A stretch of DNA of 41,807 bases. Source: a virus (lineage: Duplodnaviria > Caudoviricetes). A program made the position numbers and the translations under genes. Shown in pieces: positions 7,600-40,732 of this stretch (the stretch's first letter is position 1; the number at the start of each line of letters is the position of its first letter). Under the pieces are notes generated by a model. That model was not told the origin of the DNA. It was given only the letters and a program-made list of their open reading frames with translations, and made no database searches. Location: positions 1 to 41,807 of IMG/VR virus record IMGVR_UViG_3300027608_000064, one strand, 5' to 3'.

Positions 7600-7779
7600 A
7601 TGATAATTATTCCTGTAAAAAATAAAAATATAGAGCAAGCATTAAAGGCCTACAAATTTAAAATATATAAAACAAAACAAATACAACAACTACAGGAAAG
7701 AAAGGAATATAAAAAACCCTCCGTAGAACGAAGGGCTCAAATTCAAAAGGCCATATATAATCAAAAGAATCATTCCTGA
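7600..7779 (+). CDS. rpsU: Phage-encoded 30S ribosomal protein bS21 (59 aa; true start ATG 7600)
   Basis: MIIIPVKNKNIEQALKAYKFK...RKEYKKPSVERRAQIQKAIYNQ shows the bS21 pattern (I..ALK.YK.K, Y.KPS..RR) and a Flavobacterium-like C-terminal RAQIQKAxYxQ. Preceded by TATTTAT at 7575. Confidence 0.9.
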   Translation: MIIIPVKNKNIEQALKAYKFKIYKTKQIQQLQERKEYKKPSVERRAQIQKAIYNQKNHS

Positions 7780-18378: not shown

Positions 18379-18423
18379 TATTTATAGTTAGGTTGTGGTA
18401 TTTCCCACATCCTGTATAATGTT

Positions 18424-19602
18424 ATGTTAATTAAAAAAAGAGGTAAGACAATATTTGAGGTTTTAACTATTAAAGATTTTGAATCCTTTATAGTTAATGA
18501 AAGTTTTTATAAATACTTTATAAAATTTGATGTTTCACATAAAAAAGAAATCCAAGAATTGATTGAAAAGACAGATTTTGTAAATTACAAACAAGTTAAA
18601 CCAACAATTAAATCCATTTTAAAATACCCCGATACTATATACAATAAAAAATTTTTAAAGTGTATGGGGTGGGAAAATCAAGACATTAAGAATTTTATTG
18701 TTAAAAAACAAAAACAAAACAGTAAAAAATTATCGGATTTAAAAAAAAATAATCCCGATCATTATAAAGATAAGACAACTACCAATGTTGAGTATTGGGT
18801 TAAAAAGGGTTATTCTATTGAGGAATCTAAAAACCAAATCAAACAAAGGCAGAGTACGTTTAGTTTAGAAAAATGTATAGAAAAGTACGGTAAGGATAAA
18901 GGGAGGGAAATGTTCGACGAAAGACAAAATAAATGGATTAGAAGTTTAAAAAACAAAACAAATTATTCTGAAATACAAAAAAGTAAAAGTGGTTTTAAAT
19001 ATAATGAAAAAAGTCAATCAGATATTCTAAGACATTCTGGATTTAAAGAAAAAATAAATAACATTGTCACACATTGCACCACAAATAAAAACATTAATGA
19101 TTTTATTGATTGCGTGTTATCTAAAGATGATATTAAAAGATATTCAGACTTGTCTCCATATATTAGTAGTAAGATAATACAGAATTTTTATCAATCAACA
19201 AGTAAAGAATTAAAAAATATTATTTATAGTAAAATTAACTTAAACCAAAATAGACAATATTACGGAATACCAACTTACCATAACGGTATAAGATATAAAA
19301 GTGTAGGTGAGTATCGGGTGGCTTTATTTTTAGAAAAAAATAACTTAAATTTTGTTTATGAAACTAACTACCCTAATAGTAATATGAAATGTGATTTTTA
19401 CTTACCTAAAGAAAATATTTACATTGAGTTTTTTGGGTTATTAAATGGTAAAAATTTAGATAAATTAGATCGGGTTTTGGGATTATATAAAGAAAAAATG
19501 AATTATAAAATTAAATTTTGTGTGGATAATGATATTAATTTAATATATGATTTAAATGAAAATAAACTAATTGGAAAAATAAAAAGTTATTATGAGGGTT
19601 AA
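18424..19602 (+). CDS. Free-standing putative homing endonuclease (C-terminal PD-(D/E)XK/Vsr-like domain)
   Basis: C-terminal KSVGEYRVALFL...YE...CDFYLPKENIYIEFFG and N-terminal basic repeats (EYWVKKGYS.EE, IEKYG...G). Sits between the intein halves and is more AT-rich than its flanks. Confidence 0.75.
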   Translation: MLIKKRGKTIFEVLTIKDFESFIVNESFYKYFIKFDVSHKKEIQELIEKTDFVNYKQVKPTIKSILKYPDTIYNKKFLKCMGWENQDIKNFIVKKQKQNSKKLSDLKKNNPDHYKDKTTTNVEYWVKKGYSIEESKNQIKQRQSTFSLEKCIEKYGKDKGREMFDERQNKWIRSLKNKTNYSEIQKSKSGFKYNEKSQSDILRHSGFKEKINNIVTHCTTNKNINDFIDCVLSKDDIKRYSDLSPYISSKIIQNFYQSTSKELKNIIYSKINLNQNRQYYGIPTYHNGIRYKSVGEYRVALFLEKNNLNFVYETNYPNSNMKCDFYLPKENIYIEFFGLLNGKNLDKLDRVLGLYKEKMNYKIKFCVDNDINLIYDLNENKLIGKIKSYYEG

Positions 19603-19990
19603 AATTGAGGAGTTTTTTAATTTGATCGAGAACGAGGGTGGAACATATAAAGTTAAAACACCATCCGGATATAAATTAATTGGTAATTTATATAAAAAAG
19701 AAAATAAAACCTGTTTTGAAATAAAACTTTCAAACGGGTTAGGGTTATCCGGATCTGAAGACCATTTAGTTGAGGTGGACGTTAACACAACCAATGAAAC
19801 TGTCGAATATATTAATGATTCGTTTTGGGTTAAATTAAAAAATATTAACGTGGGTGATTTTGTATATTGTGAAGATAATAACATTTATGAGGTTATTGAA
19901 ATGTCAGAAATTGGAGTTCACAATACCTACGATTTGGAGGTTTTAGATAACGAAAGAAAATACATATCTAATGGTGTGGTATCTCATAAT
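19592..19990 (+). mobile_element. Split intein C-part (IntC, 133 aa)
   Basis: VKIEEF, block B LSGSEDHLV, WVKLKNINVGD, block F TYDLEV, and block G YISNGVVSHN followed by +1 Cys. Confidence 0.92.
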
Positions 19991-21808
19991 TGTGGTAAAA
20001 CGGCCATTGTTGAAGGTTTAGCCAAAAAAATATTTGAGGGTGATTGTCCCCAAAACTTATCAGGAAAAAGAATTGTTTCTTTGGATATGACATCAATTGT
20101 TGCGGGAACAAAATATCGTGGTCAATTTGAAGAAAGGATGAAGGTTATCATTGAAGAATTATATGCGAATCCTGATATCATCATTTTTATTGATGAAATT
20201 CACACAATGATTGGTGCCGGTAATTCATCAGGATCAATGGACGCTTCCAATATATTCAAACCGGCACTTTCAAGAGGAGAACTTCAATGTATCGGAGCAA
20301 CAACATTGGAGGAATATAGAAAGAACATTGAAAAGGACGGAGCATTGGAAAGAAGATTCCAAAAGGTAATGGTTGACCCATCAACGAAAGAAGAGACGTT
20401 AATAATACTCCAAAACTCAAAAAACAGATACGAAGATCACCATAAAGTAACATATAGTGACGACATATTAAAATTATGTGTTGAACTTGCTGATAGATAC
20501 ATTACAGATAGAGAATTTCCTGATAAGGCGTTTGATATTATTGATGAGGTTGGGGCAAGATCTCAGGTTGAGATTAAATTACCTGAAATTATTGAAGATT
20601 TAAAAAGGCAAGCACAAGGCATTAAAGACGAGAAGGTAAAAGTTATTAATAGTCAAAGATATGAGGAAGCAGCAAACTTGAGAGACAAAGAAAGAAAAAT
20701 TTTAAATGATTTAGAAAGAGAAAAAACCGAATTTGAAAAAAATAGAAATCTATATAAAAGAGAAGTTACTGAGGACGTTGTGTATGACGTTGTAACCTTA
20801 ATGACTAAGATTCCGGTCAGTAAAGTATCAACCGATGAGACAGAACAATTAAGAACCCTAAAAGAAACACTATCAACAAAGGTTATCGGACAAGAAGATG
20901 CCGTTGCAAAGATATCAAGAGCAATCCAAAGAAATAAAGTGGGGTTAAATGATCCAAAAAAACCAATATTTAGTGGGTTACTAATCGGTAATTCGGGTGT
21001 TGGTAAAACGGAGTTGGCAAAACAACTTGCAAAACATATGTTTAATTCTGAAGATTCGTTAATCAGATTGGATATGAGTGAATTCTCTGATAAAATCGCA
21101 TCGTCAAAATTAACAGGAACATCTCCAGGTTATGTCGGATATGAGGATGGTTCACCGTTTTTAAATAAAATTAAAAATAAACCATATTCGGTTATTTTAT
21201 TAGATGAGATAGAGAAAGCTCACCCTGAAATTTTTAACGTATTTTTACAAATGTTAGATGAAGGGTTTTTAACGGATGGTCACGGAAGAAAGATTAATTT
21301 TAAAAACTGTATTATTTTGATGACATCGAACATAGGTACAAAAATTGTTCAGGATTTTGGTACGGGAGTAGGGTTTTCTACAAATTCGAAAGTTGAGAAA
21401 AAAGAGGAGGAAATTAAATCAGTTTTAGAGAAAGAATTATTTAAAAAGTTTGCTCCTGAATTTATAAATCGTTTTGATGAGATTATTTATTTTAAAGACC
21501 TTAACGAAAGTGATCTATTAAAAATCGTTGATTTGGAACTTGAAAAAGTACACAAAAGAATCGAGGGTATTGAGTTTGATTTGGAGGTTGGTGAGAGTTT
21601 GAAAAAACATATCATTTCTGTTGGTACCGACACAAGGTTTGGGGCAAGAATACTAAAAAGAACAATACAAAAATGGGTGGATGATTCGGTAACTGAAAAG
21701 ATATTATCGGATAATCCAGAGAAGGGATCTAAATTTATCTTGTCATATAATGAAACGGATAAAAAAACTGAGGTTAAAGTAAAAAAACCAACAAAAAGAA
21801 AAAAATGA
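19592..21808 (+). CDS. clpC: C-intein fused to the ClpC C-terminal fragment (rest of AAA-1, UVR middle domain, AAA-2)
   Basis: After HN come CGKTAIVEGLA, GTKYRGQFEER, IFIDEIH, ALERRFQ, PDKAFDIIDE, second Walker A GNSGVGKT, LLDEIEKAHP, and the ClpP-docking loop GVGF. Confidence 0.95.
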   Translation: MRVKIEEFFNLIENEGGTYKVKTPSGYKLIGNLYKKENKTCFEIKLSNGLGLSGSEDHLVEVDVNTTNETVEYINDSFWVKLKNINVGDFVYCEDNNIYEVIEMSEIGVHNTYDLEVLDNERKYISNGVVSHNCGKTAIVEGLAKKIFEGDCPQNLSGKRIVSLDMTSIVAGTKYRGQFEERMKVIIEELYANPDIIIFIDEIHTMIGAGNSSGSMDASNIFKPALSRGELQCIGATTLEEYRKNIEKDGALERRFQKVMVDPSTKEETLIILQNSKNRYEDHHKVTYSDDILKLCVELADRYITDREFPDKAFDIIDEVGARSQVEIKLPEIIEDLKRQAQGIKDEKVKVINSQRYEEAANLRDKERKILNDLEREKTEFEKNRNLYKREVTEDVVYDVVTLMTKIPVSKVSTDETEQLRTLKETLSTKVIGQEDAVAKISRAIQRNKVGLNDPKKPIFSGLLIGNSGVGKTELAKQLAKHMFNSEDSLIRLDMSEFSDKIASSKLTGTSPGYVGYEDGSPFLNKIKNKPYSVILLDEIEKAHPEIFNVFLQMLDEGFLTDGHGRKINFKNCIILMTSNIGTKIVQDFGTGVGFSTNSKVEKKEEEIKSVLEKELFKKFAPEFINRFDEIIYFKDLNESDLLKIVDLELEKVHKRIEGIEFDLEVGESLKKHIISVGTDTRFGARILKRTIQKWVDDSVTEKILSDNPEKGSKFILSYNETDKKTEVKVKKPTKRKK

Positions 21809-25804: not shown

Positions 25805-26212
25805 GGGCCAATATTGGAATTGACGGGCATTGGTTGAATAAAGGAAGCATGTCGGGACTGAATTAATCTCGTTAAAAACTGATTCACACTACAAATGGCA
25901 ATGTGCTAAACAACCTTGAGACTTTGGGTCTAATCTCAACTCAAGAAGTAACTGTAGCTTAATAAGTTACGGATACGCGAGCCGGTTCACATACGCTCAG
26001 GAACAGAAGTGACTAAGGTGGAATACGACTGAACCCAAAATCGAGTCGTCTATTGGTTGTTGGTTTACGATAGTGAAGAACAAACTAACCTTGTTTTTGG
26101 TCAAGTAAAAAATCAAATATTTTGGGACATTAGAAAATGTCAACCTAAGCATGTAGTCGTCTTTTAAACAAGATGAGCCGGACGAGGAAGTCGGAGTCCT
26201 CTTGGTCCACCA
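25805..26212 (+). ncRNA. ssrA: tmRNA (408 nt) with tag reading frame 25897-25962
   Basis: 5' GGGCCAA pairs with 3' TTGGTCC-ACCA and includes the G3.U Ala determinant. Also GGaaTTGAC in the D-loop region, GCATGT / TAAGCATGTAG helix 2 elements, and T-stem GAGGA/TCCTC. Tag is GNVLNNLETLGLISTQEVTVA followed by TAA TAA. Confidence 0.92.
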
Positions 26213-37061: not shown

Positions 37062-37080
37062 ATTATATAAATACCCTAAT

Positions 37081-37116
37081 AAAAGAAAAGGTATTCCTCT
37101 CGGAACACCTTTCTTA
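37081..37116 (-). terminator. Intrinsic terminator downstream of 37182..39839
   Basis: Minus strand AAAGGTGTTCC-GAGA-GGAATACCTTT then TCTTTT; GNRA loop. Confidence 0.75.
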
Positions 37117-37121
37117 GATTT

Positions 37122-37139
37122 TGGAACACCTCCCTTTCT
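37122..37139 (-). other. Element complementary to the Bacteroidota 16S rRNA 3' tail (extended SD, no downstream start)
   Basis: The plus strand reads TGGAACACCTCCCTTTCT. The Bacteroidota 16S 3' end, as recalled, is TGGAACACCTCCTTTCT, a difference of one extra C. Confidence 0.6.
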
Positions 37140-37181
37140 TTAAGGTTTATGAAACTAAGATTCTACTCGAAGTTTCGACCG

Positions 37182-39839
37182 TTATACTTGTAATCCGCCA
37201 ACGGCATTGCGAAAGTCATCCATCTTTTTATTGATGTTATCAAATACGACATTAACCTGTGGTTCAATTTTTTCTTTTATTTTTTCCATTAACAAATTCA
37301 TTATTTCGTCTTTTGGCATTTCAGTTTTAAATGCGTTCTCAATGATAGCGATATCCATCTCATTAACCAAAACTTTTAGATCAATAGGAGATGATAATTT
37401 TTCACTAAGACCCTTTTTAAAGTCTTCTACGGGGTTTTGTCCTGATTCACCAAATAAGTTCTTCATTACCTCTAAGAATGATTCCTTAACTAAAGTTTTA
37501 TCGTACCCTAATCTAATTAAATAGTTTCTTTCTGATCTTATTTCATTAAATGCTAATTTTCTTTCTGATTTACGATTTAAATCGTAGTTATCAATAATAA
37601 AATTAAATTTATTATTCAATATTTTAGATTCTTGGACCATTCTTTTTTTATTATCAGAATGTTCCATTATTACTTTATTAATTGTGTTTGAAAGTCCCAT
37701 ATCTTTACTATAAATATCTCGTTTATTTTTATTTTCCAATCTTAACCCATAATCGTAAGCTTCTCCAGGAGGAGCTAATACAAGTTTAACGTCTTTATTA
37801 TTTGTGATTTTATCACCAAAATCCTTAACACACGCTTGTAGGAAGTTTTTTGTTGGTTGTAAATTATTTCCACTTTTTTTAAGTGTTTCGGGATCAATCT
37901 CTTTTTTATATATTTTTCTTATAATATTAGCATAATCTTTAAACTCCTTTAGACATAACTCTTTGGTTGTTACTTTTGGGTATCTTTTATTTCCTGATTG
38001 TATTGTTTGTAAATAACCTAAATAATCTAATATTTCTGTGTCACTCATTGATAATAAATCGGACGTTTCTGCCCCTGATCCCGGAAGTGAGGATCGACCG
38101 TATTCGTTAGTTTCGGACTTATCAAAATTAATCACGTCACGGTTAAGTGATTTTTGTAATGATTTTGTTGGTTTTAAATTAACCGTAACGGTTGTTACGT
38201 CTTTATTTATTTGATACCCCTCTTTTTTAAAAACAAACCCCTCATTCTCGTTACCATATATAAAAGACAAATCGTATTTTCCGAAAGTAACACCTTTAAT
38301 GTCAAAACTACCCGAATCATCTGATTTTGCCTGAAAGACTTTTGTTTTATCAGTTAAATTCGTTAACCGAATAGAAACGTTAGGTAATGGTGATTTTTCA
38401 AAGTTTTTAGACTTACCTGTTTTTGTACTTTCTAATGACAATGTAAATACAGTGGTCCCCTTAAATGTCGATCCCTTTATTGCTCCGATCGTATTATCCA
38501 CATCTGGTTTAACTTCAGGGGATACGTAATTATCGTGATATTTGAATATGTCGGGTATTGATTTACCATCTCTTAATGTAACCGTTATAACAACACCCTC
38601 TTTTCTTGATGAGGAAAAGAACCCATCGAGTTTCATACCATCATTAAATGTAAATTGACCGTAACCACCAATAGAGGAATCCATAAAGTCACCCTCATAA
38701 CTATTACCGTCACCAAATTTTATTGTACCGAATCGGTCGTTATTGTTACTATCATTTTTTGGTTTACTTTGTATTGTTCCGTCTATCCTACCATCAATAA
38801 AGTTACCCCTATATGACCAAGTCTTATCGTAAAAATCATATTCTGTTGAGTTTTTTAAAGTCCCAAATTTAAATCTATTACCCAGTTTTTCATCCCCAAT
38901 AAAAAAATCGTATTCGGAGTCTTCCGTGTAGTAAAAACCATCAAAATCCCCTCTTTCACCTGTTTCTATACCTTGTAGGATTTTAAACTTATCAAAACAA
39001 CCTCTTTCTATTGTAACTTGTTTTCCGTCAATTTCACCCTTAAATTTCGCCCAACCTAATTCAGGTATTTTAGTTAGGTAACCACGATCAACAGACCCTT
39101 CTTCACCATTAAAAAAGTATTGTTTCAATGAACCACTACCATTACAACCTGGCCAATTTTTTCTTAATTCTTCCGATATCTCAACAACGTTCTCATCGGG
39201 TGTTGCGATAACCTCCGGTTCGTTTTTAATCTCTTCTTGATCACCATTAACAGAAGGGTTATTATGGTAATCTACCAAATCTTCAGTACTAATACTTACA
39301 CCATCATTTTCTTCGGCAGTACCATCAAACACTATTTTAGATTCAAATTCGTCCTGTTTAAATTCACCTGTGTATATTGTCCCATCAGGAAATTTAAATG
39401 TTCCTCGACCATTTGTTCCGTTTGTTCCATAAAATCCTTTGTATGTATATCCACCCATACTATTAGGCCAAAATACAGTAAAATTACCGTCTGATGGTGA
39501 TGGTATTGGTAAAAAATCACCAGTCGTCACATCTGTTATCCACTGACCGTCATAAACAATCCCTGATCTGTGTTTATATAGTCCGTTACCCTCAAATTTA
39601 TCGTCTTTAAAATTTCCGCTAAATATATCTCCACTCTTATATGTTAAAACACCACCACCCTCTCTTTTACTATTTTCAAAAAAACCATCATAAACGTCAC
39701 CATTAGTATACGTTAATACTCCCTTACCGTTAATACAATTACCTTCACAACTGTTTGTCTTTGTTGTTTCATTTAATAGTTTATATTTTTTTAGGATATA
39801 TTGTTTTTCGTCTTCGCTTATTTGTAAATACTTTTTCAT
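37182..39839 (-). CDS. MORN-repeat protein with a prealbumin/carboxypeptidase-regulatory-like domain; putative internal virion protein
   Basis: Repeats G.G.LTY..GD.Y.G.F; PLPNVSIRL...SDDSGSF.I.GVTFGKY.L; leader ISEDEKQYILKKYKLLNE. Confidence 0.75.
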   Translation of the reverse strand: MKKYLQISEDEKQYILKKYKLLNETTKTNSCEGNCINGKGVLTYTNGDVYDGFFENSKREGGGVLTYKSGDIFSGNFKDDKFEGNGLYKHRSGIVYDGQWITDVTTGDFLPIPSPSDGNFTVFWPNSMGGYTYKGFYGTNGTNGRGTFKFPDGTIYTGEFKQDEFESKIVFDGTAEENDGVSISTEDLVDYHNNPSVNGDQEEIKNEPEVIATPDENVVEISEELRKNWPGCNGSGSLKQYFFNGEEGSVDRGYLTKIPELGWAKFKGEIDGKQVTIERGCFDKFKILQGIETGERGDFDGFYYTEDSEYDFFIGDEKLGNRFKFGTLKNSTEYDFYDKTWSYRGNFIDGRIDGTIQSKPKNDSNNNDRFGTIKFGDGNSYEGDFMDSSIGGYGQFTFNDGMKLDGFFSSSRKEGVVITVTLRDGKSIPDIFKYHDNYVSPEVKPDVDNTIGAIKGSTFKGTTVFTLSLESTKTGKSKNFEKSPLPNVSIRLTNLTDKTKVFQAKSDDSGSFDIKGVTFGKYDLSFIYGNENEGFVFKKEGYQINKDVTTVTVNLKPTKSLQKSLNRDVINFDKSETNEYGRSSLPGSGAETSDLLSMSDTEILDYLGYLQTIQSGNKRYPKVTTKELCLKEFKDYANIIRKIYKKEIDPETLKKSGNNLQPTKNFLQACVKDFGDKITNNKDVKLVLAPPGEAYDYGLRLENKNKRDIYSKDMGLSNTINKVIMEHSDNKKRMVQESKILNNKFNFIIDNYDLNRKSERKLAFNEIRSERNYLIRLGYDKTLVKESFLEVMKNLFGESGQNPVEDFKKGLSEKLSSPIDLKVLVNEMDIAIIENAFKTEMPKDEIMNLLMEKIKEKIEPQVNVVFDNINKKMDDFRNAVGGLQV

Positions 39840-39865: not shown

Positions 39866-40732
39866 TTAGTTTGGGGATGACCGATAAATACCTATCTTAC
39901 CCTCAAATTTTTGATCACATTTGTTTATGATGTGTTTTACGATTTTTTCTTGATCCTCTGTTATGTCTGAATCATTCTTGGCTAAATATATTGATCGACA
40001 AAAACCTCTTTTAAGTCCTACCTTTGGTGAGTTTTCTTTTAGTGACTCAAAAAATTCGTGTGTTGCGTTTAACTTATAAATTTTAATTTTATCATTAAAA
40101 ACGGAATTTATATCACTCTCAGTATAGTACTCACTAAAAAACTGGTAAGGTTGTTCTGTTGTCCAACCTTTTGCCATTTTTTCTTTAACCTTTTGTTTTA
40201 TTTTAATAGGTAACTCTTCTAACCCAGAAACCTCATTAGTCTTTAGTGTCTGTATTGCGGTTTCTTCTTTTTTTTTTAACCCTTGTGCAGGGTTTTCACT
40301 TTTTTCTTCTTCCTTATTTGGTCTTTCTTTTTTGTGAAGATCCATATTTGCTAATTGTCTTTTATTGAACGATCCTTTAACTAAAAACCAGTTTCCATCT
40401 GCAGGTCTTGCAACCGACCAAATTTCCATTTCACCTCTCGACTCATTTAAATTTTGTAGTACCTTAGCAAATCCAATTAATTCTGAAGACTCAATTAAAT
40501 GTGCCAAATCTTTTGTAAACATAATTTTTACTATATTTTCGTGGGTATCGATAACTGCTCTTACAAAAGCATCATCCTCATCGTATTTTTTTCTATAATG
40601 GTCTATTCTATCCATTACATCTTCCATATTGATTTTAACGTCTTTATATTCTGCGTTATCCTCATCATAGGATTGAAACTTGAAAGTATCCTTCCAATGT
40701 TTGTAGTTATCTTCGTCAAATCTTTTACTCAT
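39866..40732 (-). CDS. Hypothetical protein
   Basis: 288-aa ORF in the operon. Confidence 0.7.
   Translation of the reverse strand: MSKRFDEDNYKHWKDTFKFQSYDEDNAEYKDVKINMEDVMDRIDHYRKKYDEDDAFVRAVIDTHENIVKIMFTKDLAHLIESSELIGFAKVLQNLNESRGEMEIWSVARPADGNWFLVKGSFNKRQLANMDLHKKERPNKEEEKSENPAQGLKKKEETAIQTLKTNEVSGLEELPIKIKQKVKEKMAKGWTTEQPYQFFSEYYTESDINSVFNDKIKIYKLNATHEFFESLKENSPKVGLKRGFCRSIYLAKNDSDITEDQEKIVKHIINKCDQKFEGKIGIYRSSPN

Follow-up and report, generated by a model that had tools for sequence, protein, structure and literature searches.

The window, by which we mean the whole 41,807-nt stretch of DNA analysed, is a fragment of a T4-like jumbo phage genome carrying capsid, protease, portal and terminase genes, with a bS21 gene on the opposite strand. 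Such a gene arrangement is shared by the bS21-encoding jumbo phages predicted to infect freshwater Bacteroidetes (Chen et al. 2022, PMC9723584), with which the window has in common the block of terminase, portal, protease and major capsid protein genes and the orientation of bS21; the accessible part of that report describes no RNA element comparable to the one found here. Among the matches listed for the window protease, the best were only 34-42% identical. None of the cultured phages searched carried the element or the domain of its upstream ORF, and an Atlas search for that domain gave no match. Elsewhere in the window, a phage tmRNA gene at 25805-26212 (+) was detected by Rfam (70 bits, E 1.8e-25) and missed by ARAGORN. 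A ClpB/C-like ATPase at 18025-21808 (+) is apparently split, and the intervening 392-aa ORF, without a Pfam match, may be the remnant of a homing endonuclease or intein. A 257-aa protein at 14892-15665 (-), with a weak nucleotidyltransferase-like match (PF22600, E 4e-4), adjoins a KTSC-domain gene.

The element lies on the minus strand at the end of an 885-aa ORF (Table 1). The gap behind this ORF, given as 100 nt in the preliminary description of the locus, really measures 120 nt (37062-37181), and the element begins within the last codons of the ORF. A coding reading of the gap was rejected, as indels break the frame.

Table 1. Positions in the window of the RNA element, its parts and its genomic companions
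Feature	Positions	Strand	Basis and remarks
Phage bS21 gene	7600..7779	+	PF01165, E 7.7e-11; leader without SD; usual, not obligate, companion of the element
TATTTAT before the downstream 260-aa gene	37067..37073	-	Motif match; context, outside the element
Intrinsic terminator-like hairpin	37081..37115	-	Fold prediction; starts directly after RUCU; inner stem co-varies
Box B, AUCU(AA), consensus RUCU	37114..37119	-	Complement of conserved 16S UUAGAU; also reads AUC-UAA
Box A, extended Shine-Dalgarno-like complement of the 16S 3' tail	37122..37139	-	Duplex energy, conservation
AUAAAC box	37145..37150	-	Directly after hairpin P2; invariant in alignment A1 and in 19/19 protein-anchored loci
Hairpin P2	37151..37176	-	GUAG in loop; two-sided changes at 5/7 pairs
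H-type pseudoknot	37178..37213	-	This clade only; overlaps last codons of the ORF; stems 37209-37213/37194-37198 and 37200-37205/37178-37183
C-terminal 172 codons of the 885-aa ORF	37182..37700	-	Homology cluster; usual upstream partner
TATTTAT inside the 885-aa ORF	37710..37716	-	Inferred internal late promoter, 9 nt before an in-frame ATG

Anatomy of the RNA

From 5' to 3' the RNA is composed of an H-type pseudoknot, hairpin P2, the AUAAAC box, box A, a spacer of 3-5 nt, box B (RUCU) and the terminator. In 16 aligned sequences the pseudoknot shows two-sided changes at all 11 of its pairs, and it is considered clade-limited because a strict parse finds it in just 24 of 115 copies (shuffles, 7 of 1150). 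GTAG, as in the P2 loop of the window, occurs at most 32 nt upstream of AUAAAC in 74 of 116 sequences. Most of the loci not anchored by a protein were fetched with AUAAAC and provide no test of its conservation; a 5-mer match of UAAAC to Bacteroidota 16S rRNA was discarded as too short to carry meaning. The first paired base of the terminator is located 0-2 nt past RUCU in 105 of 115 copies. When the whole structure is scored over the 16 aligned sequences, 94% of the cells pair and 20 of the 31 pairs change on both sides, with none of 500 shuffles as good and slid controls dropping to about 50%, figures that carry a bias in favour of the model, which was derived from the same 16 sequences. In divergent copies the stems are wholly different, both boxes being retained.

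Complementarity of box A to the 16S rRNA tail

The preliminary description had read here an orphan Shine-Dalgarno (SD) sequence complementary to the host 16S tail, followed by a partial second copy. Both are present, the copy being the 5' arm of the terminator hairpin (37113-37086), and the proposed helix of about 17 bp with one bulge is recovered against a real Flavobacteriales-type 16S tail as 17 predicted pairs, one bulge and -27.1 kcal/mol. No other site on either strand of the window does as well, the next best reaching -23.6, and none of 40 dinucleotide shuffles attained its duplex energy (best shuffle -24.4). The estimate of about 1e-3 for a chance occurrence of the exact 12-nt core agrees with the 0.0011 expected from composition, the 12-mer being present once in the window. 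The gene starts inspected for the preliminary description had been described as devoid of an SD; of the 43, one (ORF 12881-13300) is preceded by a strong SD-like stretch that is kept in just one of 12 relatives and hence is not conserved.

The GGAAC ending that had been attributed to the 16S rRNA of Bacteroidota is seen in some genomes but does not hold for the phylum, since by hand count 71 of the 115 genomes listed end in GGAUCAC, 25 in GGAACAC and 19 in GGAAUAC (126 of 301 genomes were matched, and 11 of these were left out of the list). The GGAACAC set includes genomes from the order of Dokdonia and the GGAAUAC set genomes from that of Taibaiella, which we take to be Flavobacteriales and Chitinophagales, respectively. 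Box A varies in a manner compatible with pairing. Opposite the anti-SD U it has A in 48 and G in 68 of 116 sequences, and opposite the C it has G in 115-116 of 116, counts that are partly pattern-biased; five protein-anchored loci (L915-L919) read GUAUUC, an exact match to the alternative GGAAUAC tail. For each of the 115 copies the GGAAC and GGAAU tails are better predicted partners than either the GGAUC tail or the copy's own terminator arm; the energies of pairing with 16S rRNA range from -15.6 to -29.1 kcal/mol. An antisense reading, in which the element would mimic the 16S tail, was rejected, as the G.U-type variation fits the minus strand. As to the idea that the variation tracks the host tail, the changes do preserve pairing, but the genome-wide scan gave mostly chance matches: among species-representative genomes, SD plus AUCUAA was matched 113 times against a rough uniform-composition expectation of about 400. 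These matches are largely coding. Co-variation of box A with the tail of hosts that are themselves predicted is suggestive only.

The accessibility of box A depends on where the transcript ends. In an RNA ending at the terminator U-tract the centroid fold leaves the box unpaired; with downstream flank included it becomes partly paired (mean unpaired probability 0.38) and is able, in the predicted fold, to pair with the 3' arm of the terminator.

Conservation of the element

Absence from close relatives had been named as an observation that would speak against the element. On the contrary, both boxes were found in all 19 relatives reached through flanking proteins, nine via the downstream protein and ten via a distant upstream protein, several of these copies being identical. 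Pattern scans of viral and metagenome contigs yielded 116 distinct sequences past a filter that does not require box B, and 115 of them contain it; the remaining one (L758), without RUCU, was dropped as a probable chance match. The 115 copies form 39 clusters at 80% identity, and L592 is the same sequence as the window, not an independent copy. Many loci were fetched with AUCUAA in the pattern, and the fair test of box B is a scan without it. By hand count, RUCU occurred shortly after the SD in 46 of 50 terminator-flagged matches of that scan against 2 of 35 unflagged ones, the 46 being AUCUAA (17), AUCUAG (9), GUCUAA (18), AUCUAU (1) and GUCUUG (1). The SD core alone was abandoned as a pattern for viral contigs, since it gave mostly chance matches or ordinary ribosome-binding sites (RBS), with AUCUAA in one of 94 distinct sequences. 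A loose pattern was found in 14 of 401 Bacteroidota genomes (control, 3); of these matches, 11 fall within ORFs and none is directly followed by a strong hairpin. The element occurs once in each of five large records. Rfam 15 gave no match on it at E<=1, and 17 other loci gave only tRNAs at the gathering score.

Box B and its possible partners

That no AUG follows box A was confirmed in the window, yet the notion of an orphan SD was incomplete, for it missed the conserved AUCUAA located 2 nt past box A, at the place of a start codon. Over the 115 copies, box B reads AUCUAA in 87, GUCUAA in 18, AUCUAG in 8, and AUCUAU and GUCUUG in one each; it is never AUG, AUU or AUA, and AUG, GUG and UUG are absent from the spaced position. 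The distance from GGRGG to RUC is 8-10 nt, and that from GGAGG to AUG in five host rpsU leaders (49 were read) is 7, 10, 10, 10 and 11 nt. Judged by this spacing, box B sits at P-site distance from box A.

Three readings of box B were considered. Pairing with a loop of 16S rRNA is possible, its probability being set somewhat below even. UUAGAU lies within a conserved segment, taken here to be the helix-24 (790) loop beside the P site; of five 16S genes checked, three contain the hexamer once and two contain it twice. The common variants of box B, with G as first or last base, would retain this pairing through G.U. In unrelated units of the GGAUC type both flanks extend the match: AUCU has a U before it in 25 of 47 non-coding cases, as compared with 13 of 69 coding ones (p 2e-4), and UCC behind it in 4 of 34, as compared with none of 69 coding ones (p 0.01). 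Moreover, AUCU-GG, without a stop codon, is placed ahead of strong hairpins in L812, L818 and L833. On the other hand, the match is short (4-6 bp, about -4 kcal/mol) and was noticed after the fact, and the helix-24 loop is structured within the ribosome. In the phage family itself, RUCU is mostly preceded by A (89 of 115 copies, with U in 25), and A does not extend the match; the two purines past RUCU are also explained by pairing with the terminator U-tract, and a stop codon follows RUC in 113 of 115 copies. Slightly less probable is box B as a dud start codon or a start-stop, and a contact with a protein or a tertiary contact is unlikely.

Genomic context and transcription

The proteins encoded upstream of the element belong to one homology cluster in 57 of 64 cases. 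The heptamer TATTTAT, which we take to be the reverse complement of the T4-type late element, is found at most 60 nt upstream of 17 of the 43 window ORFs, against a background of about 3%, and is probably the late promoter of these phages, to judge from its placement. Where it lies 130-750 nt upstream of the element, 37 of 41 members have it shortly before an ATG whose frame runs to the element. It is located 58-72 nt before AUAAAC in nine of ten copies that lack the usual upstream family, against one of 72 copies that have it; over all copies, that spacing is found in 13 of 113, against 59 of 798 background windows. In L004, L009 and L608 a homologue of ORF 39866-40732 precedes the element, with no gene of the 885-aa type between. 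Hence the RNA seems to be retained in its own right, as the promoter-like motif is retained where the upstream gene has been lost or replaced. The gene that follows varies. Of the 88 copies with sufficient flank, 30 face a convergent gene; in the other 58 the next gene is on the same strand, and it has a TATTTAT of its own in 55.

This arrangement lends support to the earlier suggestion that the element is a putative transcript 3' end or small RNA. Late transcription from TATTTAT to the terminator would produce an RNA of about 620 nt in the window phage and of about 140 nt where the upstream gene has been lost. One contig from an RNA library spans 37129-37410 at a depth of 8.7, although a contig does not reveal the ends, strand or level of a transcript and the library may contain DNA. 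Contigs from RNA runs make up a low share (0.06-0.13), and none of them covers box B or the terminator, which is uninformative.

bS21 and the autoregulation of host rpsU

According to the available portions of two reports, the 16S tail of F. johnsoniae is held by bS21, bS18 and bS6 (PMC7797042, PMC9976891), and subunits without bS21 have a free anti-SD and preferentially translate host rpsU through its extended SD (PMC9976891). The authors of the latter speculate, in the part accessible, that this autoregulation is a counter-defence against bS21 phages. F. johnsoniae ribosomes do not recognise an SD in vitro (PMC7797042, seen in part), which implies that access to the tail needs a long helix or loss of bS21. 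Box A is predicted to pair more strongly than the -13 kcal/mol that defines rpsU-type leaders, as computed with a program and window unlike the paper's. The phage bS21 gene itself is about 30 kb away from the element, and no GGAGG was seen in the phage bS21 leaders inspected.

The element had been proposed to act as a module together with phage bS21, but an obligate association does not hold. Phage bS21 is encoded in 18 of the 22 element-bearing contigs that include its site (16 of 19 core contigs), and is gone both from the syntenic site and from the whole record in the other four (G004, G407, G420 and G421), three of which are 89-100% complete. In the bS21-less G004, an unrelated basic small ORF with a lipoprotein-like N-terminus (L428:1174-1446, -) occupies the position and strand of bS21.

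A candidate mechanism and its alternatives

The anatomy, the conservation, the co-varying helices, the pairing-compatible variation of box A and the 3-5 nt spacer are read directly from the sequences, and we infer that the RNA binds 30S subunits. We give about an even chance to a structured late phage RNA that would capture these subunits in a non-productive, dead-end complex. Box A would pair with the host 16S tail while RUCU would occupy the P-site channel without a usable start, and RUCU(RR) would pair with AGAU of the helix-24 loop as a second anchor. Such a long SD decoy would soak up subunits lacking bS21 and blunt the restoration of host bS21. In phages that carry a bS21 gene, the RNA might in addition retain these subunits for loading with the phage protein. 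The phage RNA would then be a concrete candidate for the phage's answer to host rpsU autoregulation. Against capture, a phage that makes a ribosome trap late could impede its own translation. A more elaborate version is rather unlikely as a whole: a two-site clamp on the 3' tail and the helix-24 loop would block initiator tRNA and subunit joining and would remove bS21-lacking subunits selectively in these hosts, the two-box design recurring in unrelated phages and some Patescibacteria, each matched to its type of 16S tail. If the helix-24 contact were true, it would be a novel mode of interaction between an RNA and the ribosome, and the element would be categorically new.

An unlikely alternative is a minimal start-stop ORF, in which the extended SD would direct initiation to the near-cognate AUC or GUC, with UAA or UAG immediately after; the resulting futile cycles would use up, or serve to sense, initiation factor 3, initiator tRNA or a release factor. 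RUC does lie at P-site distance with UAA or UAG next in 113 of 115 copies. In unrelated phages with the GGAUC tail, ATN is ATC in 48 of 69 distinct viral matches if the SD is intact and in 3 of 15 if it is broken, and extended SDs of S. aureus support AUU and AUA starts (PMC13009471, in the part available). However, AUG, AUU and AUA occur in none of the 115 copies while GUC, two mismatches from AUG, occurs in 19; UGA is never used, L669 and L740 have no stop, and the hairpin starts 0-2 nt past RUCU, over the A site. The three unrelated phages with AUCU-GG before strong hairpins also argue against it, while none of eight AUCUGA families has such a hairpin. Distinctly unlikely is a cis-acting 3' element, in which a 30S subunit parked as in STAB-SD would stabilise the transcript, catch post-termination subunits or hand them to nearby late starts. 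Such a role would suit an element that has a homologous ORF on its 5' side in 57 of 64 cases and occurs once per record, and would also suit those GGAUC-type units in which the SD is followed by a second RBS or shares bases with the stop codon of the gene before it. But the element is kept with a promoter-like motif once the upstream gene is lost, and STAB-SD protects RNA downstream of itself, where the phage element has only a terminator.

The frequent company of phage bS21 (18 of 22 informative contigs) and the resemblance of box A to a host rpsU leader (L959) would favour an obligate partnership, in which the RNA recruits bS21-less subunits for the exchange of host for phage bS21; the four genomes without bS21 and the existence of analogues with the GGAUC tail make this very unlikely. 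A ribosome-sensing attenuator, whose terminator would be melted by a bound subunit to permit read-through, is highly improbable. A ribosome at AUC would indeed cover the 5' arm of the terminator, and in the window an alternative long hairpin joins box A to the 3' arm, but the inner stem of the terminator co-varies with its own 5' arm and not with box A, and the next gene is either convergent (30 of 88) or, in 55 of 58 same-strand cases, provided with its own TATTTAT. Finally, a chance match or a local duplication of the terminator arm, the latter raised in the preliminary description as a possible refutation, can practically be dismissed. In the window most of box A recurs in the 5' arm, but GGTGTTC is repeated by only 27 of 115 terminators, the boxes stay where divergent stems differ, and no shuffle (0/40) reaches the duplex energy; duplication was rejected because all 115 copies pair better with 16S tails than with their own arm and few terminators repeat the box.

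Related systems and analogues

The capture RNA proposed here departs in a defining feature from each of three known systems. Like the extended SD of Flavobacteriales rpsU, it would pair over a long stretch with the 16S 3' tail at similar P-site spacing; as far as the available text of PMC9976891 and PMC7797042 goes, the rpsU SD drives a bS21/bS18 coding sequence, whereas no AUG or ORF follows in the 115 phage copies, which have instead a fixed RUCU, a terminator directly behind and an upstream structure. CreT toxins (PMC8501985, PMC10097628, bioRxiv 10.64898/2026.06.02.729485; parts of each) combine an SD, a minimal start signal and a hairpin in a small RNA that interferes with translation, and the phage element shares the layout of SD and downstream hairpin; for the Acinetobacter CreT, contact with two rRNA sites has been proposed (PMC10097628, accessible part). 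In the same partial sources, CreTs depend on an efficient start codon and on a mini-ORF whose codons are rare or slow, while in the phage element a stop codon comes right after AUC or GUC in 113 of 115 copies and there are no sense codons. CreTs lie in cas loci under CreA control; the ORFs flanking the phage element are phage proteins without cas matches. As for STAB-SD, the phage element likewise has an SD without an initiation codon (AUG, GUG or UUG in 0/115), but STAB-SD lies in a 5' UTR and protects the mRNA downstream, and the phage element is a 3' end with the terminator next, a second box and a defined fold. STAB-SD, reportedly described in Bacillus thuringiensis cry3A by Agaisse and Lereclus in 1996, is said to be an SD without a start codon and is thought to park 30S subunits. 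A CreT that combines a strong RBS with an AUC start may also have been published, though our literature search did not find one; if real, it would be the nearest mechanistic precedent. A phage RNA pairing directly with host 16S rRNA was not found described in Rfam or in the literature covered, most subscription journals lying outside that coverage.

Units of SD plus AUCU occur also in unrelated phages with the ordinary GGAUC tail. An SD of the GGAUC type, RUCU and an immediate terminator-like hairpin are combined in L791, L812, L818, L832, L833, L849, L850 and L877, all from unrelated phages, and SD, RUCU and hairpin also in L368 and L370 (Saccharibacteria MAGs) and L387, these coming from Patescibacteria and Bdellovibrionales genomes; Rfam gave no match on those of the analogues that were scanned. 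A class without the hairpin (L179, L189, L292, L331 and L349) has the SD followed by AUCUAAUCC, a 9-base complement of the conserved 16S segment, and often a second SD-like stretch comes next. In four viral loci from low-GC phages (L199, L226, L234 and L248), an SD followed by AUCUAA overlaps the stop codon of the preceding gene, which is phrog_461 in the two loci scanned. Two Bacteroidota chromosomes (L1035:1380-1540, -, and L1036:1480-1640, +) share an intergenic unit of extended SD, AUG, RUCUACAGAU and terminator. Its conservation looks to be at the RNA level, as the first halves of the two 15-codon ORFs are in different frames, and the unit is a possible host cousin of the phage element.
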